Source: Amoebophrya sp. A120 (taxonomy: Eukaryota; Protista; Dinoflagellata). Taken from it: a stretch of DNA of 64,000 bases. The notes beneath the pieces are model-generated. The model was not told where the DNA came from. It did not search any database and was given only the letters and a program-made list of their open reading frames with translations. Below are positions 34,301-64,000 of the stretch, one piece after another. Position 1 is the first letter of the stretch. Each line of letters begins with the position of its first letter. The stretch lies in NCBI GenBank assembly GCA_905178155.1, contig CAJINV010000009.1:979415-1043414 (forward strand), in the 5' to 3' direction. The position numbers were made by a program, and so were the translations under genes.

Positions 34301-37300
34301 CCGGAAACAACCGTAGCTGCGTTCGAAGCAACACCAGCTGTGGCAGGGTGAGTGGCGCTCGCATGATCATCGTCTCTACTTGCAACAGCTGCGCCCTTGT
34401 CTAGCTCAACACCTTTCCCACGCCCACCTGCCGTCTCGGTAGAAGTTGCAGCAGCGGAAAGATCCGTTCTCGTTTTGCTCTTATTCTTCGGGTTTTGCGT
34501 GAACCATTTGTAACGGAACCAGCCAAGGACGTCCGGCTTCAGGTAAGTCCGCTCGGAAATCTTTGGAAGGTAAGCGCTATCTTTGAAATCGGCGTCCGGC
34601 ATCCGCACCCAACCATCTTCAGGCGGTAGCATGTGCCGCACAAGATTCGCATATTTCTGGTTGCCATCCAGGGTGACAAACTTCTCGTAAGCGGAATACC
34701 CATCCGTGTCCTCCTCGCACAAGGACAAAGGCGAGGAAAAAGAATTCCCTCCGGACCCTTCCTTCTGCCACTCCCGCTGCGCGCGGCTCCACCGGTACAT
34801 CGTGCTCCCTCTACTCTTTCTCGTCGTACCGCCACCCTCTGTCTGTTTTTTCGCTTCTGCTGAGTCGGGGCGCGGGGCGACCTCCCGGTACATCATGCAG
34901 CGCGGCTTCACAGACTCCCCGGGTGCGCGATACTTTCCGCGCAGACATTGGGCATCAAAATTCAGTGCAAACTCCTGCTGGAGGAGCAAGTCCAAGATCT
35001 CTTTTCGCCGATGGCGCCGTGCCTCTTTCATGCTTTCCACATGCACAATCTTCGGTTTCACGACCTTTTCCCTGGGCTCGAGCTCGTACTTGAGCCTAGT
35101 ACAATCGTAGTAGTTGATCGTGGGACTGAGCTTCGCAAGACGGACGGCTGGCCTCACGATGTCCACCAGCTGGATGCAGTGGACGAAACACTTGTTCCAA
35201 TCGTAGAGATAGATCAGCCGGTCCTGCTTGCGGTTCAAAAACAGCCCCAGCTCGTAGCTGGCGTAGTCCAAAACCGGCTCAAAAAGATGCATGTCTTGCT
35301 CCCGACACTCCCCACCATGGTCGCGCGCGCGAACAGGGCGGGAGCGCAGCTGTTAATTGATAATTTTTGGATACAGCTGGAATTTCAAAAGTCTGTGGCC
35401 ATCGCGCTTACGTCCGTTCGTTGTGCACGACAAGAAACGAACCTGAATTATTAGACGGAAAAAGTTCTTAAATGCGAAGTACTCTCTTACCTCGCAGTGA
35501 TCTGGCGCCATTGTGTTTGTTGGTCCAAACATCGCTCCGTCTGTCTGATCGAAGAAGCAACCGCTCATGGTTTGCCGGCTGTAGCCAATGACCGGCTTCA
35601 GTACGTGCTCGGAAAAATCATCCAGCGAGATCCAGGCGGACACCTGGATCTCGCGCCACAACAAAGGTGCATCCTTGATGCCACTTTCCGTGTCTTCGAA
35701 CAGGCAAAAAGGCCCGTCTCGGAGGTCCTTTGTCGCGGCCTCTTCTTCTTCGGTCTTGATGATGCCGCCCCAGACCGGGCTTTCTTTCGTTTCCCGCATG
35801 CGCGCCCCCCGGGTAGTCTCGTCCTCCAGGACAGGCATCCACACCCGCACCACCAGATCGTGTTCCAGTAGTGTGAGATCCGGGCAAGGAAGCTTGTCAG
35901 GCCTCTTGATTTCGAGGGCAGAACTGTCGCCGTCTTCTTCCACACCTAGGGCAGTTGTCGACAACCCTTTATTTGAACTGCCTGTGGAGGAGGGTGAGCC
36001 TGAAGCTGAACCCCCGCTGGCACGAGCGAATGCACGGTCCTGGTCTTCGTCGTCGTCCTCCTCTGCCGCGCTGTCCAAGAGACACAGCAGTTCCTTTCGT
36101 TTCAAACTCAGCAGTTCGGCTTTCCGCTGAGCCCGCAGTTTGTGGTATTGGATCTCTGGTGGCGTGAAGAAATTGGAATCGCGCACATACTTATTCATCG
36201 TCCGCATCCATGTGGGGCGAGAAGTAGATGAAGAGCTCATTTTACCTGAGCCGGTTGATGAAGATGTCGCGAGGCTTGGATTTTTTACGGCCCCCTTCTT
36301 GATGACGGACGAGGAACTACTGGTGTCAGGGTTGATATCAGCGCGCGCCGCGGGCTGCTGAAGCTGGCGGAATTCTTCCGCAACGCGCTTGTTTATCTTT
36401 TCGTCAGGGCGATCCGTCGCAGGCGTAGCGGGGCTCAGAATAATTCCTCTTTTGTTGGACACGATAAATTTCTCCAGGTACCCGGCTAAACCCCAACCGA
36501 AATGAATCCCAGTGAGGGAGCTGGGTAGAGGAAGTAAGGCGTCTTCTTCGTTGCAGATCCAGGCCTCGACATTCAACGTGGATTCGCGCTGCACCCGCTG
36601 CAACTTCAGAAAACCCTTATTCTCGGGGTGCTCACCCACCATCACCTTTTCGGGCATCTTGTGCTGAATGCGCTCCACGAGAAAATTCTCAGGCTGGTTG
36701 TCGGAACTTGCTTCATCGCCAGCATCCAGGAGCAGTTTTTTCGTTTTCTCCCCGTCGTTCCCCGTTTCGTCAGCTCCTTTGAGGGCAGTCGTGCTATCAT
36801 CAACATCAACTTCTTCCGCAGGGTTTGACTTGGTCCTCGTGAAAAACCCCAGAAGGGAAGTTGTAGACGAGTTCGATTTGTTCGCTGGCGAGGGTTTAGC
36901 CGTCTTCTTCGCGACTGCTAGTGGTTTTGGGTAGTTATCCGCTTGTTTTGCCTTTTCTTTTTCAAAACTCTCGGAGGAAGTTTTTCTTGCAGGTCCTTCC
37001 TTATGCTCTGAAGTTGTCCTGGTCGTGCAGCGGTCATGCTTGACGAAGTGCTTGTAGTATGTCGCAGCCATTTTCAGGTCCTTCCGCCGCTGCGAATTTT
37101 GCTCGTCGTCTTGCAAGGCAAGCACCTGCACGTCCTTCCCCTGTTCCTTGGTCGTGCGGCAGAAAAGCGGGCACAGTAAGCCGATCAGTATCAAATGTAA
37201 AAATGTCTGGGTCTGGAAACTTGTGGTGCTGGGTGGCGTCTCATGATGAGGCTAGAGATGGTGGCTCAGCATGACAAGTTTCTGAGCTCCTAGGTGTTGC

Positions 37301-40300
37301 CTATTCTGCATGACAAACTGCGCTTCTGCATCACAGAAAAACGGAGCTCTTGGGTAACGTGCATGACAGATCTAAGAGGTATGCCAGACATGCATGACAA
37401 ACATGAATTCTCCCAGACCCAGACATTTTTACAGTTGATAATCAGCAAGCAGTGGCAATAGCTGGTGGGATTCGTCCGGTAGCAGTACAGCAGCTCATGC
37501 GGCTTGTCAAAGGGTGAAAACGTCAAATGCGGCGTCACGGCCTTGTACTGCACGCCTTCTTGCAAAAGCTGCTTGCTGTTTTCCCACTTGTTGAAAAACA
37601 GCGAGAGGCTGCGCCGCTCCGCATCTAGCCACTCCATGACGTTCTTCTTTGACTTTTCCTCATCAATCTCACCGTTTGGCAGCGCGACCAGACACTCCCG
37701 CGGCGGAGGTTGGCCGAAGAGTTCTTCCCCGAAAAAATTTGTGAGCTTTGCGGCGCGACGCTCCAGCGGTGGGCTGTTGAGATCAATAGCTTCAGACTTG
37801 ACTCCTTGTTTTTCTGACCACTTATTCTTGCTTTTTGCAGTTTTTGTTGTCGCCGTCGCAATAGTCGTGGGGGTGACACGTTTGCCTGCCGCAGCGGTGT
37901 AGTCTGACAGACACGACTGCGCGTTGCCGCCCGCCACGGCTTGCGCAATCGAGTCTACCATAGCAGAGAAGGAGGCAGAACGATCATCTTCAATCTCCAC
38001 GGTTTCCAACATAACGCGTAACGGAGCGTCATCATCTAAAACCTTATCCAGCATGTAATACTTGAAGACCGCGAAGTCCACGAGGAAGTTCTGCAATTTC
38101 GTTTTGTTTTTCGTGACTTCGTCTATGAACTCCTTGTCATCCCAGACTGTGAACGATTCGGACAGCCGCGGATCTGTTTGCAACAGCTGCTTCTGGCTAA
38201 ATTTGAAAGTGGGCACAAAGGCCCAACGCGGATTCTTCGCCTCGTCGATCTGCTTGTACTGGAAACTGAAGAAGTGCGGTTCCAAAATTTTCGCGACGAC
38301 TGTAGGGTTGCCGTTGAGCGCAGTGGGCGTTCGGACCTGGACGATGCTGTCACTCCACCCGTTCTTTCCCGCGACGTAGGTGATCTCGTTCGGATTTTTC
38401 GAAGGTCCAGTTTTCGTCGACTCTTCTCCGTCTTGGCGCCCGGTGTCCAGCTGCGATCCGGAGCCTGCCCTCGTTTTCGTCGTCGAAGTTGTTTTGCAAC
38501 CTTTACCCTCTGGTGGTGCAGCTTGATCGGCCCCAGCTTTCTTGCACAATTTGGCCATCGCTTTGATATTCGTGGCGGCTTCCGCCTGCAGTTCCTCTAC
38601 AGTGGCGTTTTCAGACATTGACGCGATGCGTCGATCCATTGCTGCTACGTCGGAGGCACTATTGCTCCCTGTATTTTCAACGCCGCCAGCATGCTCTTTC
38701 CGTATTGCAGTCAGAATGTCATCGAATTTGAAATCATCCATTTTGCCCTTCAAAGGACTGAGGGAACTGGTTTTGTCCAGAATCGGCATGACTTTCTCTA
38801 CTTCCTTTTCTTGCTTGGCCTTGGAGGATGTGCCGGCAATAGTCGTGGCATTCGTCGCTCGCGCCGCCGTGGAGAAGGCACAACGGCGCGGGATATTTTT
38901 CATAACTATATTGTCCGACAAACTTTTTTTTGTATATTTTCGCGGTATATATATATGGTGCGGGATATTTTTCGTGGTATTGTCCGACAAAAGATGTCCA
39001 TTTTCGCCGTCCTCTGAGCGGGTGTGGGAAGAATTTTCGCCGTCCTGCATGGACTTCGGAGAATTTCGCTGCGCCCTCGAGGTGTTATCTTCGTCACGAC
39101 TTTTTGCGATGCTTGCGTCCGTACAATCTTTTCTGCCGTCCCGTACTTCATCTTTCTTCTCTCCCAGTGGTGGGTGCCCATCGTGAGTTTCCTGTGATAG
39201 GACGCCACCCTCACTTGCCTCCATTGCGCCAGTAATAAAAACTTCAAGAGCGGCCGAGTCGATGGAGCCAGGTGGCCCTCCTTGTTCCTGTATGATTTGT
39301 GGAACGACCTGGCTCAAATAACCGACAAATTTCTTCGGCCCTAAGTTCATCATTTCTTCTAGCGAGAAGTCTGTAAGCAATCTCTTTCTCGCAATGTCTG
39401 TTATGTCGCCGAAACTTTTCCCCGGGAACAATGTCGCAAAGTCTGTTGCAGAAAAATCCTTTTGGAAAGGGTCTATCCCAAAGGTAGCGCCGCGCGCCTC
39501 CACGTGGCCCATTGCGTCCTTCCTGGCAGCAGACGCGTCTTTCTCCGACTGCTGGGATGAATTGTTCTTTTCCTGCAAACTCGAGTTAGGCGAGTTTCTC
39601 GCCGTGCTGGGCTTTCCGTCGTCACCTTTCGCGCAGATGTAGTTTCTGTCCTCCGTGCAATCGTTTTCATCGCCTTTCTGTGTTTCGTCTTTCTTCTCTC
39701 CCCGAAGTGCCGGCTCATCGTGGCTTTCTTTCGATGGAACGACGCCTCCACTTGCATCCGCCGCACCTCCACGTAGTTTCCGTGTCGTTTCGTCTTCCGT
39801 GCCTCCGATCGATACTGAAGCTTTCAGTGGAACGACAGGAACAGTTTTTGAGTCTTTCTCCGGCAGCTGACTTTTATCGGCAGTCATGTCCGCGAAGGCG
39901 CTTTTTACCATGCTCGCTGCGACTTCCAAAAACCGGGCCATGGCGTCTTCCAGAAACCGTGCCATTGCGTATCCGAAACCGAACTCCTTGAAGGCCGAGT
40001 CGTCGACTTTCCCCTCTTGGTCGGCCGGTTTCGGTTCGACTTGAAGATTACTCGCATTTATTCGAAGCCGGCTCTCCTCCTTGTATCCCAGCAGCACCGG
40101 ACGGTTCTGAAGCTCTCCGCTCGCCCGCAGCTTCTGCACTTCGCACGTCATATGGAACACCGCATCTTGGTCGAACAACGTTTTCCCCTGGTTGTCTTCC
40201 TCGGCTAGGAAAAGGCAAAGTTCCTGCAGCATCACCTGCAGCTTCAGTGCGCAAAACCCGGTCGCCTGTGCCATGGAGGCGGGATTGTTCTGCAGCTCTA

Positions 40301-43300
40301 GGGCATCTGCATCATCCAACAGGTCCGCAGTGGCCGCGGAATCGGAACCACTAGTACTCTTTTTCGAGTACGCATTTTTTCGAGTCACCTGATCCCACCA
40401 ATCGTTCTTCTGCAGGCGTGATGTACCCCCGGATCTCCGCTCTAGCTTGGCCCAGTCTTCCAACGCCAAACGCTCCATGTCGGCAAAATACCCGTGGTCG
40501 TCTCGCAGCTGCTCTTTCAGTGCGCACATGGGGAAAATCAGAAGGTCTTCAGTCGCGTCTCCCAAGTCGATCTGGAGCTCCGCGGGGCGTCGACAAAAGT
40601 CCAGCAGGGTTCGGCGAACGTGCTTGCGTTGCGCGTCCAGGTTCACAAAGTCCCAAAATTCGCTGTTTTTCTGCGGGTCGTCGATTTTTTCAAGCAGCCG
40701 GTGCAAATACAAATTATTCCCGTAGACGCCGCTATTCATCAAGATTGCGTCGACAACATCGGGCGTTCTCGTCACAGCTGCGAGAGGCACCGTGTAGGTG
40801 GCAGGCGTGTCGTAACCCAGGCCATCTTTACCAGCTTCCATAGTACGGCGAACGTCGCGAGCGGAGGGCTGCAAAGGTTATCCAGTGCAAAATTATCGCA
40901 CTTGTACTTCTAATCGCAGTCACGCATGACAGACATTTGGCCTAGAAGGGCAAGACAGCATTTTACAAACTGCATCTTTGTTCATAGTCATGCCATTTAC
41001 ACTAGTGCAATGCTAATGCATTTACAAAGCATAACGCTAGCAGATCCTCGATTTGCTCATATTCGCCAGCCGGATTCAAATACAACTCCTCGTCCCACCT
41101 CAGAGCAGAGTTCTTCTTGTCGTCGTTGCGGCCAGAGTTTCGCGCAGTGAATATCTCTGGTGGCTTTTCAGCACCTTCTACCACTATGTTCAATTTTAGC
41201 AACTCTCTTCGTAGGCGCGGTCCCAGTTTTGCCGTCGCGATGACAGGCAGCCTGTCAGGGCAAGGAATCTCACAATGCGCACGGTCAAACAATTTTCGCA
41301 TGTGAAGCCCGAATCGGAGGTTATGTTTCTTCTCGAGGAGCTGGTCCCATTCGAACGCCAAGCGGAGCTGCTTACTGTACATCAACTCATTCACCTGGTT
41401 GCTGCCGGAAGCGGAGGAAGAGGATGAACCTGGTGCATTGTCGACAGTTGCGGCCGCGGACCTACTCGCAGACGCGGAAGTAAAATCACCGGAAGGAGTT
41501 AGAAAGTCGGTATCGCTTGCATTGATGGTGCGGGTGAGTTTCCCGAAACCTCCACTAGCGTCCTTCGGCTGGTGTGCGCCGGTGTGTCCTCCGCCACTGG
41601 ACTTGAGTTGTGCGTTGTGACCCCCTCGACTGCCTGCTCCGGTCACCGCTTTGCTCGCGAGCGACTCAAGCAGCAACTGCTCTTGCAGCTTGCTCTCCAG
41701 CTCTTTGCGTTGCTTCTCCTCCCGACGGAGGCGCTTGTTTTTGGATTTCTTCCCCGTCACGGTCGTTGGTAGTTCGGAAGAAGTGGACGACCCTCCGGCT
41801 GGTTGTCCTCCCCCGGACGCCGCAGCTTCCTCGCCCTCCACTGCTTCCGCAGCAGAAATCGATGGCTGGGCCGTTGTGGATACTTCTGGAACCGCGGCAC
41901 TTGTTCTTGCGTTTAGAATATCCGACGGCGCGCCGTTGGGTGCACCCTGCACGGAGTTCCATTTCCCTTTGGAAGGTGCGGCTTTCGGAAACAATTCCTC
42001 CACCGGTCGCTGCTTTTCCAAGGCTTCCAAGAACGCGTTTTTGTAGCCCCAGCGATCCGCCCGCTGGTGGGACCGCCACTGCAGCAAGGCCGTGTCAAAG
42101 TTCGGAAAAAGCCGCTCGCCCTCGGGATAGCACTCCTCGTCGCGAACGAGCCAGAGGTTGGGCAAATTCCGGTTCTCCAGGTCCGTATCCGAGGGGTCGA
42201 AGATGTAGCTGTCTTTGATCAACCACAACAAAAACGCACGGGCCTCCAAAGCGTAGCCGAAGTGCTCCAGGCCTGGGCCGGCGTCCGGGTTGATGCGGTT
42301 TATGTCCTCCACACTCTTCCAGTTTTTTGGAAACAACTTCATTTCAAAAATCCGCTGCACGATCAGCGCCCCGAGCTTGCTGAACTTCAAGGTTCGACAG
42401 GTGGACCGGTCCACCTCCTGAAAGAGTTTTAGTTTTTCCTTGGGGCGATTGTCTTCAGTCTTGTCAGTGCCCGTCGCATCGTGATCCAGTCGGTTGATCA
42501 ACGTCCCTGCGTGGTGCCAGCAGCGAACAAATTGCGACAAATCTCTACGCTGTTGATGTGCGGTTGCAATACTGGTGGCTGGTGATGTGTTATTTGCACT
42601 GGCAGACGAGCCGTTGGAGGACGTTCTTTCTCTTTCAACATGATCCTGAGCAAGAGCATCCTCCAAGTCCGAGTACCCTGGGTACTTTAGAACGACCGGT
42701 CGGATTGGTTTGAACAGCCGTTCGCTAGCGGTGAAGCCCGGGAGCTTGTCGATCTTCCGCGGAACTTTCGGGTCGATTTCGTCCCGGGATCGCAAGTTCA
42801 ACAGTTTCCGGAGCCGCGAATTTTCGTCGTGCATGTCGATGTCGCGCTTCCGGCGCTTGTAACTCGACGCGTGCTCCGGGTGCGCGCCGTAAAAGTGCTC
42901 GTTGTCGTACATATGGGGCACCCGGAAATCGCGGTGGATGCTGTCGTACACGACCCCCGTCGTTTCCCGGAGGTACTGGCCGTGCAGGGTTTCGAAAAGA
43001 CTGATCACCCCGTCGGACTTCAGCGTCCAGCCGTCCTGCCGATCGAAGGAGCGGTTGCGCGTCTCGTGGTCCGGGACGGGGAGGATGTGCTCCGCTTTCA
43101 CGTTTTCGATATCGAGGTAGGCCAGCGGAACCGGGTCCGCCGAGCTCATCCCCTCTTTCAACCCGTAAAACCCACTGTGCTTCGGGTCCCGCACGTTCAG
43201 CGTTTCCACTTTGTGCCGAAAGCTCGTCTCGTCCTCGAAGATGAAGTGGCGGCGGACGAACTCGCAGAACTGCTCCGCGCCCGTGTGCACGTTCCGCGGG

Positions 43301-46300
43301 TGCTTTTCCCCGCCACAGATCGGGTTCACGTGCGTGTTCCCGAGCAAGTAGGGGCGAATTTCGGAGTCGAAGAATTCCCCGGTCACGCACCAGTCGAACA
43401 CTTGTTCGTTCTTTTCGCACACGAGCAACCGGCGCGTAAACTCGACCGGGTCGACGAGACTCCTCGCAGTCGTGTCCCAGGGCGAGAATTTCCACTGGGT
43501 GCTGTTCCGGGTCTCCGGATCGGAGTAGAAGAGCCGAAAGTCTCGCACTTCCTCATCGGTCATGGAGCAGCACAACGTGTTCCGTGCCATGTTCGCCCGG
43601 TTGGGATCGATGATCACACGCACAGAGAAGACCTGCTTCAGCTCGTCGTAACCTAACAACACAGCCTCCGCAATGCCGTTCTCTTTCAGCAGGGCTGGAA
43701 ACTTAATGTTGTTGAAGCCGATGTTATTTTTAGTGGCAGACGTTGAAGATGTACTACTAGAGGCTGCTGTGGTAGTTGCTCCGTCTGCTACGCCACCTGT
43801 GCTCGGTGTGTTTGATGTTGTTGCACCACCAGCTCCAGCGCTGGTATGGGGGCTATAGGCACACGTACTACTGGGGGAAGCGCAATAGTACGATTTTAAA
43901 GTTTGCTCCCAGGATTCCATGTGGCGAACAAGAATGATGTCGCCCCTGCGGATCTCCCGCTCCACACTCAGCCCACTGCGGCGCGTCAGACAAGATCTGT
44001 CAACTTGGAACAGCATGTCTTTGTCCTTCGAATCTTCGAAAATCTATCCTGAGTAAAAACGTACCCACACCAGAGTCAGGATGAGGATTTTGCAACACAA
44101 ACCTAGGAGCTTTGTGAGTCACGCATGACATAAACAGACTGTGCTGCTACGGGAATGGCATTGTGTTTCGGGTGAGTTGATCAACCCAAAGACGCCGCCA
44201 CCCCGGGCCCAACGGACCTGGCACTCCAAACTATCCTCCTCACACACACACACGCACCAACTTATTTGCAGTGAGTCACGCATGACAAGCTGCACTATGC
44301 AGTGTAGTGCAGGTTAGCAAGTGCAGCCGCATCACAGATTCGTCTGCTCATCCTGTTCACAGCATCACAAATTCCAAAACACGACTGGAAATGGCTCTCA
44401 TGGGGATGCGCATTACAAGTCTTCCTGTCTTTGCAAATCTGCATTACAACTCTGGTGTGGGTACGTTTTTACTCAGGATAAAATCCGAGTCTTCGCGATC
44501 CGCCGGAAGGTCGCCATGGGTGTCTCAAAATCCTCCGGGTTCTTCGGTGCCTTACCCGCTTTACTACTGGAATTTGTACTGAGTGACGTCGAGTCGTTCG
44601 CCGTGTTAATAGTACTTCCTGGAGGGAGGGCTGATTGGTTTTTTTGTAATTTACAATTTACACCTTTGAGCAGTTTCTTCTCTGACGCCACTCGCTGCTC
44701 TGACAAGCACTGCTTCGGCAGTGGGCGGTGTAGCAACCTCGCGTCCGGTATCCAAGAAAAAACACCCATCCCCATCCATTTTGTGCATGACAAACACATG
44801 ATTTGATGCGTCCTTTGCATGACAAATTGGATGTGGATGGGTCTTTTTCTGTGGATATCCGGTTTGTGTGCGTAGTAAAAAAACTCTCGCAGGCCCGGGC
44901 CGCACACCTGCGACTGAAAGGTGTTAAACTTCGCCGGCTTCCCGATGGGAATCAATGTTCGGAACTCCATGATGTATTTACAGTCCTCCCAGTTATATCC
45001 GACGATTTTGGCACCTTCGTCGTCCAACATGGAGTCCGTCTGTGTGCATCCCGAGTTTTCCACCTGTACGATCTCTCCTGGCCCAAAATCAAACGGAACG
45101 AACTTCCAGAAAAATTGGCTTCCCTCATCTGCGTTTTTGTTGCGGTTCTCCCGTGCTGCTGTGTTTTTCGATTTGAAGTCCTCGTCTTGTGAAGAGGAAG
45201 AGCCTGCTTGATGTTGTTGTCCTAGCTTTTTCCCCACAATTGGTTTCGCAGCTGCGGACGCGGAGTTCTTTGTACTGCAGGAGCTACTATCCGCTACTTC
45301 ATCATTGTTCGGAAGGACATTGTCCTGGCAATTGCTCCAGATGGAAATATTGACGGGCTCCGGGTCGCCTTCCGTTGTCGTTTTCACGGACAGAATGCGT
45401 TCCCGTAGGTACAAAGCCCGAAACGTACAGTAATTCTTCATCAGCAGCACGTTTTTCCGACTGCTGAGGTTCTTCGCGTTTTCGAAGTACTTGCTCACGT
45501 CCGCGCTGCTGTTCAGGTTTTCCTTGCTCTTCTCGTTTTTCGTGTTCGCCGCCGCAGCCCCGCCACTGCCCAGCAGATCGTCCAGCAGGGTGTCGGCCGC
45601 CTTCCACGCGGAAATTTCCTTGTCGTTCAGGTATCAAAATGAAAAATCCCCCCACCCCATATCAAAACGAAGTTTGTGATGCTGGACTTGCGTACACAAA
45701 TCAGATTTGTCTTGCTGGAGAGGACTGCAGGCCCATACTAAGCCTGAGCAGAAAGGTTTTGGGCTAGGGTCTTAGCATCAGAAGCGTCTGCGCTGTAGGC
45801 CCAACAGCATCACAAATCGCCTGCATAAAGCGGCGGAGCCTGTGGAGGTGCCTTCTTGCAAGACAGAGATGATTTGTGGTCGCAAATCAGCATTGCAAAT
45901 TTTCTGCTACGTACCTTTTCGATATGGGGAGGGGGGATTTTTCCTCACAATATTAGGGGGGTCGAGTGCTTGCCTCTATCCGCGACCAGCATTGCGGCCA
46001 GTTTCCGAAACATGAACTCGGCTTCCTGGTACTCGGCGTCCTTTGTCTTCTTGTCTTCGTCCGTGACCACATCTCCCGTCACCGGAAGGTTGTTTGTCAG
46101 GTCAAAAAAAGGAAACTCTGCAACATTAGTAATATCAAAGTTGAACAACTCTCGCTGTTGGTCCTCCGAAGATGTCGTCGCGTTGCTATTGCCGGACGAC
46201 GTCGAAGATGTCTTACTACTCTTCTGCTTAATATTCGCCTTGTTATTTCCCGCACCGGCTCGGCCAGCTGCAACGTCTTTGCTGCTCAGGTGCATTTTCC

Positions 46301-52403: not shown

Positions 52404-55254
52404 CTAGATCAAGTTCTCCTCGAGATCTGGGTTGCTGGTCAAGCGAGCTTCTTTCCAGCCGTACACTCCGCTCGCAACGACGAACGCCATCGCCACCCAG
52501 GCAAGGCACGTGGAAAACGACCACATGGAAAAGATCGCCCCCGAGTTGTCAGAGGCAGGGGACTCGGTTTTCTCTACCAGTAGCTGTTTCATTTTGGGAG
52601 CCAGCGCCAAATTTTGAGAAGCACGGGAGGCTGCTTCTGCATCAATTTTACTTGCTCCGGACGACGTGCTAGTCGAAGACGCCGTCGCGGCGACATGCGC
52701 AGCCGTGTTACCGCCAGCGAGCGCCACTAGCGGAACTTCCTTGAAATCCTTGGACTCAGGTGCGGGCGCGTTATCTTGCATGTCGAAGACCACCTTCAAC
52801 GGTTCATCGGCTTTACCCGGCGCGAACAGTTGGAAGTCGACGAAGCACGGCTCGTCAAAATAGCCCTTGCTCGCATCCGCATTCCCGCTTTTGCCCGTGA
52901 CACAACCATACCTCAGTAATTCAAAGAGATTAAATGCGTTTGTGCGTGCCACCTACACATACGTATGTTGCGCGTAACCACTACAGTTACAGGCACAGGC
53001 TCATCCGCGTTAGTTTTCTATAGCCAGATCATATTTATTAGTACAAAAGTGCTAAAAAAATACCAGACATAGATCATCGGCGCGGCTCCACCGCCTCCGT
53101 AGGCGACACTTCCGAAACGCGATGGCGCGATGCCGGACGAGATTCCGGGAGCAAAAAAGCTCTGCATCCCGATTTTCCCGAGCAGAGTAGTCATCTCTTT
53201 CGGTGACTCCGGCGTCGCGAACACATTGTAGGAGTTGTCCGCGTACACATCGTCGACGAATGTACCCCACTTCGGAATGGTATCGATCTTCTGGTGCAAA
53301 TTGTCCCACTTTTTGCTGAATTCCGAGATGTCCTTGGGCACGGCCTGCTGCTTCTGATCTCCTTTGTAGAAGCCCATGGGAATGGAAATGTCGCACTTGA
53401 ACTGCCAACCGTTGCTGCAGCTCTTCTCCTCACTCCCGGAATACTCGTAAATGTAGTATTGGTGGAAGCACACTCGGTCACTGTCCCCCATAGTGCACCA
53501 GTCGTAGAGGAGAAAGAACGGCTTCGTCGGGTCCGCGTAGCCACCTTTCGCCTGTCCGATGTAGGGCCCCTGCCGAGAGGGAGCTGGATAGGCTGTCATG
53601 GTCGCGAACGACTCTGGTGTGTACAGAAACATCGACTGCAAGATCGCCTCGTGGCCACAGAAGCTGACCATGCTCCCCTTGTCGTACCCGTAAACACAAG
53701 CGTCGGGCGCGTACCAGTTTTCGATCAGCTCTGTGCCCTGCTTCGAGTCCCAGCCGTGCGTCAGCACCACGTGTTTCATGTGCTTCATGTGTTCCTCGGG
53801 CGTGTCCGCCGGCGCTGGCACCGCCTCGACCACTTTCACCGGCGGGAGCTTGACCTCCGGTTCGGGCGCCTGGAATTCGTACACGATCTTGTATTTCCCC
53901 TCTTCATTCTTCTGCACGAAAAAAATGTCGATGAAGCAGGGCGGCCCCAGTGCTGGGTCCTCGTAGATTTGCCACTTCTTCGGGCCCCGCAAGTGCTCTA
54001 AGCACCCGTACCACATGGCAACCGCCGGTGCTGTGGACCCTTTCGGCGTCTCGGAGAACAACACCGTGCCCCGCCGGAACGCGCTGCCCACGCCGTCGAA
54101 GGGCGCGAAGAAGTCCAGAATTTCGCCCTTCTTGTTGGAAAGCACCTGCAGCGACCAATCTTCCGAGCCTGCTGCCGGCAACGGGATCGTCGTGTAGGCG
54201 TCGGGGGCGTAGGCGTCTTTGAGCAGCTTCCCCCAGGTTTTCCCGTCAAACGCTTCGAGTACGAGAAAAACGTCCTTGTACAACTCGGGCGGCATGGCCA
54301 CGGGAGCCGTCACCGAGCCCGTCGGCGATTTGTCGGCGATGGTCAGACCGCCGTGGAGCACGGCAAAATCCGCTGTGATCTTCCACTTTTTCGCGTCAGG
54401 GGAGTACTTGTAGACAAACGCCTGGTGGTAGCACCCCGAAGCACCCGGCAACGGGCTCTCCAGGCACCAACTCCACTGCCCAAATAGGGGCTTTTCCGGG
54501 TCCGTCATCTTCCCTTCTTCAAGGAGGGGCCCGACTGCGAACTGCGCCCCTTCCATCAATTTCATGGTCTTCCTATGAACTGCAAAAGCAACGTACTCGT
54601 ATAAATGCATTACAAATTTCCTTAGCATCAGTGATAAAATTTGTAATGCGGATTTACCTTAAGACAAAAATTTGTAATGCATGATTCCAATACGAGTACG
54701 ATACTTTTGCACAGGATACTTCCACTGCTCCTTGGGGTATTGCTGCAGGGCAGAAATCATGGCCGCGCGGTCGCACACCTGCACCATCGGTGGGCTGCCC
54801 ATCCCGGGATTGGGCTGGTACACGCAGGCGTCTCTGGCGTACCTGTGAAAAACAAATAGAAGCAAACAGGATGAGGCTTTTGTTTTCGATATGCTTTCGC
54901 TTCGTGAGCCGTAGCAAGCAAGAATACTATGTGGTGCAAACACACTTGTTGTCATTGATGCTGGCCCGGAATTATGGCGCTTTTAAAGGGGGCAACCCAT
55001 ACCCAGTTCGAGGAGTGAAAAGACACACTGACGCTCACTCTCCTCGAGAACCAAAAGTCCTCGTGCTCCCTAAAACTAGTGTGGTACCATTCCTCCAGGT
55101 ACTCTTGGCCTTCCTTTGTGTCGAATCCCCGCGTGCCGGCAGTTTTCCAATCATCAAAGAAGCTCTTGGCGTCCGGCGGAGGCACTCCCCCGGCTGCAAC
55201 GCCACAAAAGGTCGCCGAAGCGGCAGGCCAGAAAATTCTACTTCTTCGGGCCAT
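52404..55254 (-). CDS. Secreted/surface protein with a duplicated module (four NTF2/SnoaL-like units) and a C-terminal TM segment, 4 exons
   Basis: Signal-like N-terminus. Recurring WYARDACVY/YAPDAY/WYAPDACVY/YADNSY, WYGC twice and PCF(I/V)D twice; TM segment near the C-terminus. Introns 54843-55087 (GT-AG), ~54574-54723 (TIR type) and 52912-53063 (GT-AG). Fold assignment is an inference. Confidence 0.75.
54574..54718. mobile_element. TIR intron, 145 bp, TSD CTTCC
   Basis: TAT...TGCAAAAG(C/T)A(A/T)CGTACTCGTAT...TGCATTACAAATTT inverted at both ends. CTTCC at 54569-54573 and 54719-54723. Removal gives EQWKTMKLMEG. Confidence 0.92.
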
Positions 55255-55849
55255 GAATTGAATGGTGCTTTTATTCTTGAGGTACAAATTAGTTAAAATG
55301 TTCGATCGAACAGGACGTTAGCGCCTACAAGTAACAAAGAGGCTGATCCCTATTCCTCCTGTAGGTAGTTCTATAGCCGGGTGCGCACACTCAGACTCAA
55401 GACTTCTGCAGGTGAAGATCGCCCCATTGATTTGATACCGTGGAGAAAATCCGGCACGAAGTTCGGCAGATGTTTGTATGCGGAATGCGCTTCATATCTT
55501 TATCTGAGTAAACTTAAGTAAGTACATTGACCCGCATACTCAAAAGTCATTGCATCCCTCCATCGGGGCACTTTGCTTCTCTCGTCTTCTGTGACGGGCA
55601 ATCTGCTGTGGCAGCACCGATTGGAGGCAATATTCAAACCGACAACAAATCTGCGTCGAGGTATTCATTCATTTCGTCGAGAATTGGTGAGATTAACCGA
55701 AATTTTTGGATGGAGAAACACGAAGCGGTGGCTGTAACCACATGTTGGCTTCCGTCTCACCTGTACTTGCTGCGGTTTTCGTTTTGTCCTTACTCGACCA
55801 CCCGGTGGATTCATCATGTTTATAAATTGCATTCGCTTTTTCGGCAGAG

Positions 55850-57424
55850 TCACGTCAAGGTTATTATCGGTGTAGTCACTGTCTCATGCCATTTTCTTAC
55901 TGCTTTTTGATTTTCGGACTGCTCATACAGTTCCGACTCCTCCGCTCGTTGCAGCATCTTCGACTTTTTTCGACAATATTTCGGACAGTTTGCAAATATC
56001 TTGGCCATCCGAATCTTTGTCATTGGCTTCAATCGGTCCAACCAGCTGTCCAAGTTTTGCTCGAAATTCGTGCAGCTTTGAAACATGCAAGACAACTTTG
56101 TTGCGCTTGAGACATCCCAGTTATCCATGGGTTGGTTGTAGGCACGGCAGCCCTCAAACATGCCCGTCATGTCGTGACACTCCCCAACATCCCAGTCCGC
56201 TACGCTCTGGTTGAACGCGGCACAACCGGAGAACGCGAACGATAGGTCAAAACACTTGGAAACGTTCAGGTGGTTCACTGGCTGATTAAAGGCGAAGCAA
56301 TCGCAAAAGAGGGCGCTACCATTCTGGAGAGATGCCGTGTCCCACCCTCCAACCGGTTGGTTGAAGCGGTAGCAGTGGCCGAACATCCCTGATGCGTCCA
56401 CGACGGACCGCATGTCCCAGTCAGATACCTCGGAATTGAAGCGGTCGCAGTTCCCAAACATACCCTCCATGGAAGTGACGTTAGTTGTGCACCACCCGGA
56501 GATGTCGCACTCAAACCAGGCGATGCCTGCGAAGAGTTCTCTTAGGCTGGAGACGCGCGAAACGTCCCAGGTGACCATAGGGCCGTGTTTGTCCGTGATG
56601 TCCTGCCACTTCTGCTCCATCTCCGCTCTCGTCAGGTGCTGGTATGCGGCATTCAGCTCGAAGGAGTGTCCGTCGTCTTTCCTCCAAATAACGCGCTCTG
56701 CCACTATATATTGATGTTCCGTTGTGATACTATCTGTCACCCACTCTCGGTGAATCCAATCTTTTTCCTCAGCCGGAATGGTCATCCAAAAACAGAAAAG
56801 CTCGATCGCGTCATCAAGCTCTGCGCGTGTTGCAAACGGCTCGAACTCCTTCTCGTAAAACCTAACAAACTGGTCTATGTCGCTCGTGCTCGCGACAGCA
56901 GTCGCGTCTTCACCTTCACCTTCTGTATCTGCTTGCTCAGCCTCACAATTCATCTTGTCCATTGTATTTTGTTCATCGGTAATATTTGCGGCCTCCGCAG
57001 CGGATGACAGCTCTGTTGCGGCTGCTAGCTCGGGGAGATCGATCATAAATGTGCGCGGCTTGCGGACCTGCAACGGTTGCAACAGCGCGGAGTGGTCATC
57101 CCGGCCTTGAGCAGCACCTGCAGGTTTGCATATCCCTTCCCCTCCTTCGGAACTCTCTGCCACTTCATCTCCTGTTCTTTCGTCGTTCCTTGCCCGTACC
57201 GCCAACTCCGACCGCGGGTCCACCACGAGCTCGACTAGCTGCCACGCCCGTGGCCGCTCCAGTCCTCTCTCCGACGCAGACCGCGCCGCGACGGCCCGTT
57301 TGATTTGCTCCACCGAGACCTCCGGTGCGTCGAACTCTAACACAATAGTCTGCTCGAAATCGTGCAGACGGTGCAGAGTAAGTGTGTACTTCTCTTCGCC
57401 TTCCACCTCCATGTGCTGCGCCAT
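55850..57424 (-). CDS. BspA-like/DUF285 repeat protein
   Basis: ~7 tandem ~25-aa repeats of the W(D)xSxVxxMxxMFxxCxxFNQ type (WDVSRVSSLRELF, WCTTNVTSMEGMFGNCDRFNS, etc.). Confidence 0.9.
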   Translation of the reverse strand: MAQHMEVEGEEKYTLTLHRLHDFEQTIVLEFDAPEVSVEQIKRAVAARSASERGLERPRAWQLVELVVDPRSELAVRARNDERTGDEVAESSEGGEGICKPAGAAQGRDDHSALLQPLQVRKPRTFMIDLPELAAATELSSAAEAANITDEQNTMDKMNCEAEQADTEGEGEDATAVASTSDIDQFVRFYEKEFEPFATRAELDDAIELFCFWMTIPAEEKDWIHREWVTDSITTEHQYIVAERVIWRKDDGHSFELNAAYQHLTRAEMEQKWQDITDKHGPMVTWDVSRVSSLRELFAGIAWFECDISGWCTTNVTSMEGMFGNCDRFNSEVSDWDMRSVVDASGMFGHCYRFNQPVGGWDTASLQNGSALFCDCFAFNQPVNHLNVSKCFDLSFAFSGCAAFNQSVADWDVGECHDMTGMFEGCRAYNQPMDNWDVSSATKLSCMFQSCTNFEQNLDSWLDRLKPMTKIRMAKIFANCPKYCRKKSKMLQRAEESELYEQSENQKAVRKWHETVTTPIITLT

Positions 57425-58089
57425 GAGGATTTGCGAAAGTAAGGAGCTAGCAGTATCTTACGTATCGTCCCAGTCAGTGTAGTTCCAGGAAGTCGAACTG
57501 ATCTAGCTGCAAGTAAAATGCTGTGCCTCTTCGAAATGCGCGGCTAGTGGAGTCCTATCGTTCTAGTGAAACTTGAAGTCGCAGTTTTTATCATAGTGAA
57601 GTAGAACGTAAAAACAGCCCATGGATCACATACTTGCGTGCCATACAGTAAACATGCACTGTCCTTACACGATGTACGTGTACCTGCCCTGCGATTCAAA
57701 TCATTGCTTTTGCGGCCCTTTTTGTGGAAAATGAAATCCACACGAACTCAAAAGCAAATCGCCTGGACAGTAGAACCAGTTCTATCTTCTCGGCTGACCA
57801 CAGGAGTGAGGACAACATCATGATCTTGAAGTTTTCTGATGCATAGCTCAGCACATCAGCTTTCATTTTCAAGACCAGTTCCAGTATTCCGCTTGAAACT
57901 TTCACGTCTTTTTTTTTTTCATCATGACAGACACTTTTGGTTCGATTAGAAGAGTGATAAATTCCGATCGGTTCGCGCCAAAAGCACGACCTTCAACGGT
58001 ACTGTAGCTCTAGGTTTAAACATAGAAAATTGCATCGCTCAAGAAAGAATTTTATGTACTTGTTACGGCATTACCCAAATAAAATGTTT

Positions 58090-58875
58090 TCACTGCTGAG
58101 TGCAGGTTTTCGAAACCCTTTCCCAACCTTTCGATAAGTTCTTCATCTCTTCTAGGGAGACGGGATAAGCACCAAGAACCTTTATGGATTCCGAAACCGA
58201 ATCACCTCCCGCCACCTCCGTCTCCTGTTCCTCCTCTGCGGATTCTTCTTCAGCAGCTTCGTCCTTTACTGCTATTGTGGCAGGAGGAGGAGGAGGACCT
58301 GTACAACCTTGTGGAAGCTTAGCGACTGCCGAGACAAAGTCTGCGATGTGCTCCTTCCCCGCATCGGGCACAGTGTGCATGGGTAGATCGATTCCCACCA
58401 ACGCTTGCCACTGCTGCGGCGACATGCCAGGCGTCATGTATAGGCTGTGGTAGGCCTTGTCAAACTGAGACTGGGGCGTGGGGGTGGCGAAAGCGTCCAT
58501 TCCTGGCAGAGAACTAAGCACCGCTTGGTCTCTCGTTTTTTTCGGCGCACCAGCCTGCTTCGAGGCAAGCGTAGAGCGAGGTTGGCCATGCATCAACGGC
58601 GACACAAACTCGCGCACCAAGTAGCTAAGGTAGGGTACTTGGTGGAAAAATTTCTGCACAGCGGGGTGCTTTTGGATCATGTACTTGTTTGACGATGTGT
58701 CCTCAGTAGAAGTCGTCTTCCCCGGAACTCCGCTGTGGTCGAGCCAAAGGCTGGCCGCGCAGTTTTCCAAACCAGCTATGGGAAGGCTTTCTGGAGGCAG
58801 GCACTCCTGCTGCATCAGGTACATGAAGGGGGCGATGTGCGGCCGCTCCGTTTCGGACCGAAAAATTTGCCCACA
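58090..58875 (-). CDS. 3' exon of a hypothetical gene; upstream exon lies beyond the window end
   Basis: Protein-like frame CGQIFRSETERPH...KTCTQQ. The ORF-track extension to 59118 lies inside a TIR element and is probably not coding. Confidence 0.65.
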   Translation of the reverse strand, partial: CGQIFRSETERPHIAPFMYLMQQECLPPESLPIAGLENCAASLWLDHSGVPGKTTSTEDTSSNKYMIQKHPAVQKFFHQVPYLSYLVREFVSPLMHGQPRSTLASKQAGAPKKTRDQAVLSSLPGMDAFATPTPQSQFDKAYHSLYMTPGMSPQQWQALVGIDLPMHTVPDAGKEHIADFVSAVAKLPQGCTGPPPPPATIAVKDEAAEEESAEEEQETEVAGGDSVSESIKVLGAYPVSLEEMKNLSKGWERVSKTCTQQ

Positions 58876-58935
58876 TATCAAATGGAAAAATGTCTGGGTC
58901 TGGAAGATTGCCAGGTTTGTCATGCACATTTTGCA

Positions 58936-61900
58936 CCTTGATATTCCCGATTCACACTCGGGGGAATTTTTTCTGGCTTGGAGACCCCCTCCCACCCCCC
59001 CGATCTCGGATGTGCGTGAGCCCAAGAAAGTCCAAGGACTTGAAACATGCAAACATTTATGCGTGAGGGCTGCAGAGTCGCATGAAAAACAAAAAACTCT
59101 GAGCGAGCTGCACCGCACATGCGCGACCGAACGAGCGAGAAGTAATCAACAAGAAACTAGAGATAGAGGTGTGCGGCACCTCAAGGCACTTATGATGGCG
59201 ACGAGAAGATGAAGTAGTTTTGTTTTTTTGAATTGTCAGACATTTACGTATTACGGTATAAAACAGGTCAGCACTACCTCGATTGCGGTGTTTGCAAAGC
59301 GAAGCGGTAGCTGTAAGTTGAATTTTTTGTTCGTCATCATGGAGCTTTAGTGTGTCCACATGAGTGTCGCGGGATCTAAGAGCCCATCTATGCGCCCGCC
59401 TCATGGAGCACGCTGTGTGCCAGGAACGGGGCCGGGCATAAAAAGCGGGGTGCGGCCCCTTGAAATAGGTGGACTTATTATTAATTATTTCTTATATGCA
59501 GCCAAAAGAGAGCACACACGCGCGCGGTGAGTGGGTGGAGTCCTTGGGTGCGGCCCGACCGAAACCACCACTGCACCCGCCTAGAGATAGCAAAAAGAAA
59601 CTTGGTGCTTCCGGGTGCGGCCCATCAGCGAGTAAATAGAGTGGCTGCCTCTAAGGGCGGTAAAAGGTAGAAGCTAAAGGCTAAAAAGTATCTATCAACG
59701 ACCGACCCCGATCAGCCCGTTGGCAAGACGAAAAAAAAACATCTGCCCCTGCAACAAATGCGGGGTCCGCCACCTAGCGCTACAAGGATTCCAGAAGTAA
59801 GCAAGACGACGAGAAAGAAGTAAAAGGGTAGAGACCTGCATCTACGTGGGAACGCGGGGAAAGCAGGGAAGATCCGGCATTTCAGCATGAGGAGCGTACG
59901 AATTTGCGATCTAGCTCCATCGGGGGCGGTAGGTACTCACGAACGAAGAGCAATGGCAACGAAGTGCAGCAGTCTTTCGCGAGACCAAACGAGATGGCAA
60001 GCGAGGTCCGCGCGCCCCCCCTGGAGGTGAGATGCGAGGGTGGCCCTGTATTGTGATCTGCAATCTGCATTAGACCACACAGGAAATGAGGATGTTGGAG
60101 AAGGATCCTAGATGAACATGAGCGACACTAAGGAACGCTCCAACAACCTCAGCCAACCACTGCCCTCGCATTCACAAGAGACCTGCCAAGGCAGACTCAA
60201 CTCCGGAGAATCTTCCCGAAGCCGACCTCTAAGTTCGGCCTGGTCGGCAACGAGGCAATGTCCTCAGGGGCCGTTAGGAACCTCCCGAAACAACCGTCAA
60301 CGAGCTCCAGCGCCAGGAAGCCGCTGACGAGAGAAACGCACAGACTGTTCCCAGTGGCAAGAACAGAAAGGCAGGGACATAGGTGAACCGACAGTGACAC
60401 CAACTCGACCAAGGTAACCCAGAGTTCCGGACCCGGGGAACACTGGGGACCACGCGGCAGGAGCGCAGCACAAAGACGCCTGAAGTGTTCCCAACCGCCA
60501 GTCAAGCAGCAGCCAAAAGTCAACGGAGGCAGCAGCAGAAGCCACTCAGGTACTCCACCGAAGACGAGAGGAGCCGCAAGACCCAGAGCAAGCTCCGACG
60601 GCCACAACAGACGCTTCTACTGTCGCAACACCACTGGGGACGAAGACAGAGGGCAAGGCAAGAGCCTCGCGCAACGGGAATTTCCCACCGAGCCATGTCA
60701 ACGACCTCACATGAGAAGGCGCACCAGGACGGCCACGAGAGGGGATAATCTAAGGCACCCCGCATTCAGCCCCGTCTACACCACCGAGGACGACGAGCAT
60801 CTCTCGTCATTATGTTCACCGGATCCATCGTCAAAAATTCACGTCGTGCACGCCGCTCTGCCTCGAGGCATTGTCACTCGTCCGCTAGACACACTCCCAC
60901 TCCACTTCGATGGAAGGCCAGACATCGCGACAACATAGCACAGCAGGGTTAGGAGTGGCTGTGCTGAGTCGCGTCTGGAGAGGGAAGCTTTAAGGAGCAC
61001 CAGGCTGCCCGATTGTCCTATTTGGGCGAGTTTTGTTGTCGCCCCCGACCGCCCCCCGTCGCGGTAGCTGGCATCACTTCTGCTCGGGGAAGCCGTCTAG
61101 CCCTCGGCCATGGCAGAGGCTTCTGTCTGTCAATCGCATACCGGGCGTCGCATGTGTACGCGGCTAAGGTTTCCGAAGTTGCTGCGTGTCGTCTTTCGCT
61201 CGTAGCAGATAGGTTTGTAGTAAGTATGGAACTGTAAAAGGCAAGGCAGAAATGTGCTTGATCCTGATGCGAGAAGGCTGGAATTAGAGCGGCCATGGCT
61301 GAGCATGACACGACTTTCACTACATCTTCCGCAATACATGAGATGTCAGCATGACAAACCGATGTTTTTGTAGTTTGATTTTCTATAACGCATCACTTGA
61401 CATCCAAGAAAACAGAAGGAAGAGGAAGCTAGAGAAAGACCGAGCTTCTGCCTTGACTTACGCCTCAGATATTTTGTTGGATCCATCCGGCGATGCCGTG
61501 GTGGAAGCTTGCCCCCTCCACCCTGTTTCAACACTACAAGAACTGAGTGCGCCGGCCCACACAATTCGAAGTGATATACGTTGGGCTCCTGCGCTCATGC
61601 TCGTCGTCAGCGTCGATAGCTGCGAGCAACACTTATCTCATCGCCGGATCCGTCGCCGCTCGCTCTCGACGGCACTGGCCTCCGCTCGCATCCGCCGCAT
61701 GGCTCCGCCTAGGTGTGGCCGCGCGACAGCAAGGTCAGAAAGTCTTCGCGCCGCAACCTCGTAAGCCATTCCCACATCGACACTTCTCGTGTACAGCGGC
61801 AGAAACTAGGCGCGGAGCCGCAAGTAGTGAGTGTCTGTTTGTCTTCAGACACGACCTGAAACTGGAAAACTGCTTCGCTGAGCTCGAGTGCGAGGTAAGC

Positions 61901-63806
61901 CCGGGAACGTAACCCGCCGCGCAAACTAGGTGTGGGGCCGCAAGTGACGCACGCCTGTTTGTCTTCAGACACGAGCTGAAAATGGAAAACCACTGCGCCG
62001 GACTCGAGGACTACCTGGGAACTTAACTCGCACCCCTGGCGAGGGCGAGCAGAAACTAGGCGCGGAGCCGCCAGTAGTGAGTGTCTGTTTGTCTTCAGAC
62101 ACGACCTGAAACTGGAAAACTGCTTCGCTGAGCTCGAGTGCGAGGTAAGCCCGGGAAAGTAACCCGCCGCGAAAACTAGGTATTGGGCCGCAAGTGACGC
62201 ACGCCTGTTTGTCTTCAGACACGAGCTGAAAGTGGAAAACCACTGCGCCGGACTCGAGGACAGCCTGGGAACTTGACTCGCACCCCGGGCGAGGACGGGG
62301 GACGCGATTTAGCATTAGAAGAGGGCCTTGCTGTGGGGCTGGCAGTCGATGTCCATCAAGGCCGCGCTTGTTGCTGGATAATCTTATGGTCGCGCTCGGG
62401 ATAGGAAAGCTGGTGCGTAGTGAGGTCTGTTTACTGAGGAGATATACGTTCATGTTATGCGGATCGCCGATCTGAAAAACGCATGACAGAAACACGCCAA
62501 GCACAGGGAGGCAAGGCCGAACAAGACACAACCGAGAAAAAAGAAAACGGAAACCCAATACGCAAGTGGAAAGCGACATGTGCACGGACCTCGCCAGCAG
62601 CTTTGAGCAGACATATCTTGCCCCAGTTGACGACGCGGAGGATGTGTATCGGTTCTCCGCGTTGCACTACCAATTGCACCCAAAAGGAGGGCGCCTCCCG
62701 TCCTGCAGCTGTGCACTAGCATAGACACGTTTGCCGTAGCAACGGGATAGACACGTCTTCATTTTTTCACTGCGAGGAGTCGCCGACGGGCGCGTCCGCT
62801 TTTAAATCGCTCCTTGTCCGCTCGTGATTGCGCTCAGCTCTTGGGCTCGGTCTGGATGCGTCGGCTGTCATCTTGTCCTCATTTCAAGAAACCAGATGTG
62901 TTGCCAGTGGGGTTACATTGAAGTCTCTCACGCGGAGACCAAGACCGCTCCGCTTGCGGCCACCGGGCTTGCGCCTGCGAAGAGTCTGACCCGGCTTCCG
63001 TACGTGGCAGGACCTAGGAACACGGCGACTTGTTCCCAGTTCACAGCAAGCGTTCAACTTTAGGTCGTAGGAGGCTCGCCCAGGTGAAGATGTATAGTAG
63101 CAGACGCAGTCAACTTAAGTACAAGGCAAAGAGACATCGCTTAATCGAACCTACTCAGTGCTTTGAGGTCGTGCTCAGTGCTTTGAGGTCGTAAGCGGCC
63201 CTAATTTTCAGAGACCGAGAGCACCGCCAGAAGGGAGCCCGGCTAGCCGCGTCTCGCGGATTTACGTCCACGCCCATCTTTTCATGACCCGACTGCAGAA
63301 GGCCGGGGGCTGGTTAGCGGGCTGCCGTCACCACCCTGCGTCGCGGCCCCTTCGACGTCGTGCTCCTCCATCGGCACCACGACGACTTCTATTGATTCCG
63401 GTGGCGCTCCCTGCACAGGCGGGAGGCTAGGCTCGTTTTGGGAGGCGCGTTGCGTGTTCATTTCGTCGATCTCGCTGTCCTGCGTCGCGACGTGACATAG
63501 GAACTCACTAATTGCCTGCGAGGGAGCATCGAAGGGGTTCGGAGCAACGTTCTGCGGATCCGATAGCAGCGCATCGATGCGACTGATGTCGATCAACTCG
63601 TGTAGGCCGTCATCGCTTGTACTGGCTCCCACCTCGTCCCGGAAACCTTCGTGGGATCTCGTGATTAATGCCGCGAGAGCCCGCGCTTCTTCGTCGTCAA
63701 CTGGCCGCTCTTCCCGCTCTTGGCGGGCCGGGGAGGGTGGAGGCCATTCGTCTTCCCCCAGGCCTTCTGGCCCTGATGCATCTTCCCCCAGGCCTTCGTC
63801 TTCCCC
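58936..63806. mobile_element. Nested ~4.87-kb insertion flanked by the 15-bp direct repeat CATGCACATTTTGCA
   Basis: Exact repeat at 58921-58935 and 63807-63821. No intact transposase, RT or integrase ORF inside. Confidence 0.65.
61799..62293. repeat. 250-bp tandem duplication made of ~120-130-bp subunits (ABAB)
   Basis: GCAGAAACTAGGCGCGGAGCCGC at 61799 and 62049. CTGTTTGTCTTCAGACACGA occurs four times. Confidence 0.93.
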
Positions 63807-63809
63807 CAT
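63282..63809 (-). pseudogene. Acidic/Pro-rich ORF fragment abutting the insertion boundary
   Basis: ~175 protein-like codons. The ATG falls inside the 15-bp direct repeat, suggesting a 5'-truncated or captured coding fragment. Confidence 0.4.
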
Positions 63810-64000
63810 GCACATTTTGCATGACTCCTGATGTCTGTGATGCATGCCCTAGCATCACAGATTTTGTGAGGGCTTCCTGATGCCTATACCGCATGACAAA
63901 TGCTCTTTCCGTGTAGCAAAACTTGGACTCTCTTTGCTGCTCATGCAATACAGATTTTTTTAGAATCCAAAATCAGCATGACAAGTTGATTCTTCCAGAC

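Follow-up and report, generated by a model that had tools for sequence, protein, structure and literature searches.

The window analysed here, a stretch of 64,000 nucleotides from the dinoflagellate Amoebophrya sp. A120 (contig CAJINV010000009.1, positions 979,415 to 1,043,414 of the forward strand), contains seven transposon-like elements, of which five are complete, one is decayed and one is split. They begin with TAT, end with ATA, carry terminal inverted repeats (TIRs) about 22-55 nt long and lie between 5-bp duplications (four perfect, one matching at 4/5 positions and one at 3/5). In anatomy they match the introners published for this organism (Farhat et al. 2021, PMC7789003), including the A120-type end pattern of TAT, seven bases and an A-run, while some related families have TAT without the A-run. 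Inward of the TIRs lies a short repeated motif, GCAT(G/C/T)ACA on one strand and TGT-V-ATGC on the other, and it is this internal array that concerns us: it occurs in nearly every element sampled, is conserved at defined positions, is arranged with preferred spacings and is almost independent of the direction of transcription.

An earlier, sequence-only reading of the window had listed 23 copies of the motif (19 forward and 4 inverted), all of which are exact matches. The whole window holds 30, against a mean of 5.57 in shuffled sequence (0 of 100 shuffles reached 30), and the sites added to that list are 63836 (inverted), 61303, 61349, 62481, 1240, 6611 and 10234. The motif had also been described as sparser in canonical introns, and the difference is clear: six elements (1,418 bp) contain 19 exact sites, whereas none of the 17 GT-AG introns joined in RNA contigs (3,178 bp; three of the joints are not displayed) contains one (Fisher p=1e-5). 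Once the elements, the canonical introns and the region 58876-64000 are set aside, the remaining 54,245 bp hold three sites. Site 6611 falls in a probable GT-AG intron (6487-6701) outside the RNA-joined set. The description of the host introns as unrelated needs qualification, because although their interiors are dissimilar, the listed sites belong to seven elements in five families, one TIR family being common to the elements at 37189 and 58876 and another to those at 40879 and 54574. Likewise, 44123 and 44280, taken as separate sites, are a single one doubled by a 17-bp repeat around a 139-bp insertion, and the sites at 58918 and 63836-63976 lie on either side of a 4.87-kb insertion, flanked by a 15-bp duplication, that interrupts a single element.

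A larger sample was obtained by scanning metagenomes with an 18-nt piece of one TIR, which gave at least 153 loci (14 of 64 parts covered), most of them from one assembly. Elements were then identified by a finder blind to the motif, which asks for TAT…ATA ends and a 5-bp duplication and returned 0 elements in 40 shuffled loci against 93 in real ones. The resulting set comprises 219 distinct elements (5 from the window and 214 from the metagenome loci), and all counts given below refer to the window and these loci rather than to the whole genome. Of the 219 elements, 216 have one or more exact sites, as do all 29 interior clusters and all 12 TIR classes, which bears out the proposal of a conserved cis-signal shared by dissimilar TIR introns. 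After 14 of the 153 loci, each with less than 60 bp of element-like DNA, had been dropped, element DNA showed 959 sites in 77.7 kb (12.3 per kb), compared with 36 in 149 kb elsewhere (0.24 per kb; 11 expected). When all 8-mers in 45 subfamily representatives are ranked by frequency, variants of the motif come first and second, and a third variant sixth. The TA..TA termini common to all catalogued elements follow from the search definition; non-TAT TIR families were nonetheless rare among the matches listed in an unconstrained scan. Viral scans gave 4 and 6 matches, a chance-like number, with one nominal TAT pair in 10 loci, and a scan of prokaryote genomes gave 0.

The core of the site reads TGT-V-ATGC, where V is C more often than G, G more often than A and almost never T, and it is usually preceded by AAA(T/C)T; the commonest variant is TCTCATGC. 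Across nine subfamily alignments, conservation is 0.92-0.97 at the seven fixed positions and 0.80 at the fourth, against a background of 0.84, and the site is conserved as strongly as the TIR core. Copies occur in multiples, in both orientations and inward of the TIR, and the first inward-reading copy mostly starts 32-33 or 40-42 bases from the element end. Neighbours in the same direction prefer a distance of 30-33 bp (chiefly +31/32), which is found in about 11 of 52 adjacent pairs and in 8 of 12 TIR classes (the best window in the null has a mean of 7.2 and a 99th percentile of 11). An inverted partner lies at +14-16 of 23% of the sites, against 9%, and +45-47 is also preferred. The site may resemble those of PUF, Rbfox, ApiAP2 (TGCATGCA), Pax paired-domain and DREF/BED proteins, as well as hAT ends.

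The history of substitutions distinguishes changes shared among copies from those private to one of them. At the motif, shared changes occur at 0.15 of the interior rate and private ones at 0.57 (0.40-0.79), an overall ratio that is the same for the TIR core; in the best-sampled subfamily the private ratio is 0.93 (0.37-1.93). This contrast fits selection acting mainly on the copies that multiply, and is also compatible with selection after insertion.

We then compared the orientation of the sites with that of transcription, using strand calls from a coding model (right for 107 of 107 held-out pieces of the window, concordant in 23 of 28 loci with several calls, and available for 117 of the 214 elements). 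On the mRNA, UGUVAUGC occurs 212 times and its complement 172 times (55:45 by sites), which by element amounts to 49:38 with 30 ties (p=0.28), and with locus-level strand calls to 53:50 (p=0.84). The sense excess noted earlier is real within the window but reflects mainly the small size of that sample. The larger set rules out strict strand specificity, and a small sense bias is still compatible with its values. Insertion itself is balanced, at 17:19 in the largest subfamily and 3:3 in two subfamilies whose copies all point in a single direction. An exact sense site is present in 105 of the 117 elements and missing from 12. The fraction of broken sites is similar in sense and antisense (odds ratio 0.74-0.95, p 0.27-0.85), and for private changes a comparison of the two within elements gives p 0.21-0.83.

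The sequence-only reading had left two options, a DNA signal such as a subterminal transposase-binding repeat, or an RNA-binding site marking introns that lack GT-AG. The DNA site is favoured by an orientation that tracks the element, by constrained spacing and by stronger constraint on shared than on private changes; the RNA option is weakened by these results and no further. We hold, with middling confidence, that the motif forms a protein-binding array on double-stranded DNA that is read by one shared mobilising machinery. Since one site is common to all the TIR classes sampled, one factor probably serves them all; this protein, its binding and its role in transposition we infer from the pattern of sites. 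The machinery could be the transposase of a partner element, or a helper protein of it, and would recognise the invariant TAT end together with the array as a sequence-specific handle. The variable body of the TIR (12 classes) would need only to be self-complementary, so as to bring the RNA ends together for removal, and a copy that lost its sites would stop multiplying while still being able to splice. Such a division of labour between the TAT end and array on the one hand and the TIR body on the other would account for the spread, within one genome, of many families whose TIRs are unrelated. In practical terms, the motif offers a defined bait for pull-down and a marker for the autonomous element, and would give a first handle on how these introns spread.

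Several observations weigh against this interpretation. The sample is enriched for one TIR family, which supplies 127 of the 219 elements, and comes largely from one metagenome assembly. No transposase or autonomous element was found among the open reading frames (ORFs) of the window and the loci examined, whether by Pfam (14, 17 and 2 ORFs), by a crude integrase pattern or by a scan for long elements, and none is reported for A120 in the consulted parts of Farhat et al. (PMC7789003). A general helical phasing of about 10.3 bp, strong at first and the best period in most tests, was not significant by family, and for this reason we claim only the preferred spacings. Private changes are depleted overall, and are somewhat rarer at sense than at antisense sites (0.11 vs 0.16-0.20 per site; two-sided permutation p 0.02-0.10); an earlier, looser orientation set gave 49:30 (p=0.042); and 11 of the 12 elements devoid of an exact sense site retain one with a single mismatch. 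Finally, two apparent GT-AG introns with no TIR, recognised by reading frame only (L054:2512-2685 and L067:2367-2479), each contain two exact sense sites 33 bp apart and cannot be aligned to any catalogued family; an intron that does not move should have no use for a transposition site.

Their pairs are among the 8 site pairs at 30-34 bp counted outside the catalogued elements, against 0.23 expected (9 loci skipped), several of the pairs being uncatalogued elements. The L054 intron also has an inverted half-site at +16, and its host gene, which had no Pfam match, is presumably akin to acyl-CoA oxidase. A rough count with a GT-AG predictor found a site in 3 of 38 predicted introns; this predictor placed 3 of 12 benchmark boundaries correctly and missed both the L054 and the L067 intron.

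The most serious alternative, which we regard as possible but clearly less probable, is that the site is recognised, once the element has inserted, by a host protein acting on the pre-mRNA or on DNA under transcription, which marks the intron for removal by a spliceosome that works without U1; carrying both directions would then ensure splicing whichever way an element lands. The absence of the site from all 17 RNA-joined canonical introns and its presence in nearly all non-canonical elements agree with this proposal, as do the paired sites outside the catalogue, the slight sense excess and the high proportion of elements with an exact sense copy, and U1 has not been detected in A120 (PMC7789003, as far as that source was consulted). 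A host role in splicing retains its place chiefly because a pair of sites persists in each of the two TIR-less GT-AG introns and because private changes are slightly fewer at sense sites. On the other side, single-direction families insert equally both ways, sites are broken as often in either direction, and the 12 elements without an exact sense copy still interrupt restored reading frames. RNA folding, moreover, predicts the sites to be more paired than background (unpaired 0.17-0.20 vs 0.43), and the L054 and L067 introns have GT-AG ends, which other introns splice without any site. The comparison of sense and antisense decay provides a test within a single genome that separates mobility from splicing. 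The two roles might also be combined, a single protein reading the array to mobilise the introner families, staying on the new copy and flagging it for removal by the U1-less spliceosome. We think this unlikely; if it were true, transposition and intron recognition would share one sequence code.

It is improbable, in our view, that the motif is instead bound by a host protein of DNA or chromatin that has no part in splicing, and that elements carrying it amplify or persist better, for example through accessible chromatin or escape from silencing. Such a site would be shared by TIR classes that ordinarily require different transposases, would be independent of orientation and could be kept in TIR-less introns, all of which is seen. 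It would not be expected to be nearly absent from host genes and intergenic DNA, where the few sites counted above (many of those in the loci lying in uncatalogued elements) are all that occur, nor to be tied in position to the element end. A functionless relic of a common ancestral element with internal duplications is a poorer explanation again. When TIR classes are compared, the spacers separating the sites resemble one another slightly more than shuffled ones do (0.32-0.34 vs 0.26-0.28), which makes a shared origin plausible; the relic itself is largely refuted by position-specific conservation, seven positions being held while the fourth drifts at background level, and by a roughly six-fold depletion of shared changes in elements whose TIR bodies and interiors have diverged beyond alignment. 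Least credible of all is that opposite copies pair and so extend the hairpin formed by the ends in RNA or single-stranded DNA: folds do predict the sites as paired and many elements have inward-facing copies at both ends, but the free base matches between opposite-end copies in only 28 of 102 elements (46% expected), offsets are equal in 4 of 102, with differences of 1-2 or 8-9 nt, whole families are single-direction and pairing gives no reason for the same sequence to be fixed in 12 TIR classes, so that the copies are not kept for pairing.

Transposable elements that behave as introns have precedents, maize Ds1 being spliced as one. In Amoebophrya, the non-canonical introns of A120-type genomes number in the tens of thousands and fall into about 1,950 families (PMC7789003; here and below, statements on published work concern the parts of each source that were consulted). 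The elements described here share with those introners the TAT, seven variable bases and A-run, direct repeats of at most 5 nt at exon borders, non-GT-AG ends, co-oriented genes and similar sizes; in contrast, only the terminal inverted-repeat and direct-repeat motifs are described there, with no internal array. Strings of the motif had 0 matches in the main and supplementary text of PMC7789003 (figures aside), and 0 in the searched supplements of PMC12130899 (all except files 13 and 14) and PMC9860276 (one of them in part); the consulted parts of PMC12130899, PMC12005148 and PMC11282704 contain no mention of an internal motif, and literature searches returned no report of it among the matches listed. 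The introners themselves are thus known, and the internal array, its geometry and its conservation are apparently the new part.

Among the mobile elements that may be related, A120 family 38 is listed as 'Ginger; 5-bp TSD, TA/TA termini' with integrase-like homology, TSD standing for target site duplication (Gozashti et al. 2025, PMC12130899). The 5-bp duplication and the TA termini with TIRs are common to it and to our elements and suggest an integrase-type mobiliser, whereas family 38 is about 810 bp long and has ORF remnants. IS3EU and GingerRoot also have TA..TA termini and TIRs, with an integrase-related transposase, but their TSD is usually 6 bp, as opposed to the 5 bp of the window elements and loci, and the TIRs of GingerRoot measure 100-150 bp (PMC10045372, PMC6839031) against about 22-55 nt here; in the ORFs and loci examined, our elements are also without a transposase. 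We have not filed them under IS3EU/GingerRoot because the duplication is 5 bp, not 6. The word 'subterminal' had 0 matches in the consulted GingerRoot text. A functional parallel to the favoured array of transposase-type sites is found in miniature inverted-repeat transposable elements (MITEs): in Emigrant/Lemi1, the transposase binds subterminal repeats cooperatively (PMC1636448, where hAT and CACTA are cited as well). Those repeats, too, are short, lie inward of the TIR in both orientations, are unequal between the ends and occur in non-autonomous elements; here, however, 12 TIR bodies that are unrelated to each other share a single motif, and the elements carrying it are introns. The nonconventional introns of Euglena likewise lack GT-AG and have ends that pair (PMC12501133), but their pairing motif sits at the very ends, whereas ours lies at least 30 bases inside, is repeated and is not kept for pairing.

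The coordinates of the window elements and of the features associated with them are collected in Table 1.

Table 1. Introner elements, insertions and host reading frame in the window (positions counted from the first letter of the window).
Feature	Positions	Strand	Details
Introner, 252 bp, TAT…ATA, TIR about 28 nt, duplication ATCAG	37189..37440		Exact sites 37269, 37308, 37328, 37361, 37392; one-mismatch site 37222; intron status deduced from ORF restoration
Decayed introner of the 150-bp family, 155 bp, duplication 3/5	40879..41033		Exact site 40924, plus three with one mismatch
Introner of the 279-bp family with a 139-bp secondary insertion, duplication AAATC	44045..44480		Sites 44123 (=44280, doubled), 44329, 44362, 44410, 44441
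17-bp direct repeat (44114-44130, 44271-44287) flanking the secondary insertion	44114..44287		Holds a motif copy
Introner, 109 bp, duplication TCCGG	44749..44857		Sites 44785, 44817, 32 bp apart
Introner, 321 bp, duplication 4/5	45632..45952		Sites 45675 (inverted), 45807 and four one-mismatch sites
Introner, 145 bp, duplication CTTCC	54574..54718		Sites 54607, 54642, 54673 (last two inverted, 31 bp apart)
Left part of an introner of the 262-bp family	58876..58935		Site 58918; 98% identity to the L066 and L088 copies
4.87-kb secondary insertion, 15-bp duplication (58921-58935, 63807-63821)	58936..63806		Sites 61303, 61349, 62481
Right part of the introner at 58876, cut by the window end	63807..64000		Sites 63836 (inverted), 63852, 63891, 63976
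Host reading frame, 4,776 codons	35356..50981	-	Restored by removing five elements and 5 nt with each; weak zf-MYND match only

The only window element seen spliced is 54574-54718, where contigs join 54568 to 54719 and leave out 150 nt, that is, the element and one duplication (contigs of X5 and X6, one sample, which are presumed to derive from RNA). The five elements of the long host frame are taken to be introns because their removal restores it, which tests element length only modulo 3; they have no splice evidence, the gene at 35-51 kb being thinly covered by RNA contigs. Coverage in the raw RNA run X7 was limited to TIR-like pieces of another locus. The families are repetitive, as indicated by a very high contig depth over the elements in X3 and by relatives of 74-91% identity among the best matches in the loci.

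With regard to splice ends, exact removal in any of six registers yields GT-AG in none of six elements, and in four of them no register supplies an AG acceptor; across the loci, 55 of 100 sense and 38 of 100 antisense readings allow one. A strong GT/AG bias was not found in the duplications, and in the terminal stem G-U and A-C mismatches occurred in similar numbers (81 vs 75), with no bias towards the RNA strand. The element at 44749-44857 and its duplication add up to 114 nt with no in-frame stop, so that retention would leave the reading frame open. Within the TIRs of the window and the loci, the two ends agree at positions 11-28 but often disagree at positions 4, 5 and 7, where the same few variants recur from one family to another; a 6-bp tandem repeat is present in many TIR bodies.

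Secondary insertions inside introners form a small group of their own. Five of six have duplications of 8-21 bp that overlap a motif copy or a degenerate form of it (window 58921-63821 and 44114-44287; L009:1491-2745, L054:1805-2435 and L053:571-1051), and four of these five have a junction immediately ahead of the site's CATG/CGTG. The inserts in L009 and L054 are related to each other (70%). Together, they look like the work of a non-long-terminal-repeat retroposon that prefers CAYG and inserts into DNA removed by splicing; since 56% of such 4-mers in element interiors lie in sites, a preference for the full motif is not demonstrated. The 4.87-kb insert at 58936-63806 matched no Pfam family at the curated cut-off, and it contains a tandem duplication of 250 bp (61799-62297), a possible decayed TAT element with two sites at about 61225-61471 and, towards the right end, short repeats.

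Elsewhere in the window, the genes at 8400-10400 and 20500-21950, which we take to encode relatives of eIF4A and NAC-alpha, have only GT-AG introns. A tandem array of units of about 140 bp lies between genes at 11780-12480, and a DUF285 repeat protein is encoded at 55853-57457.

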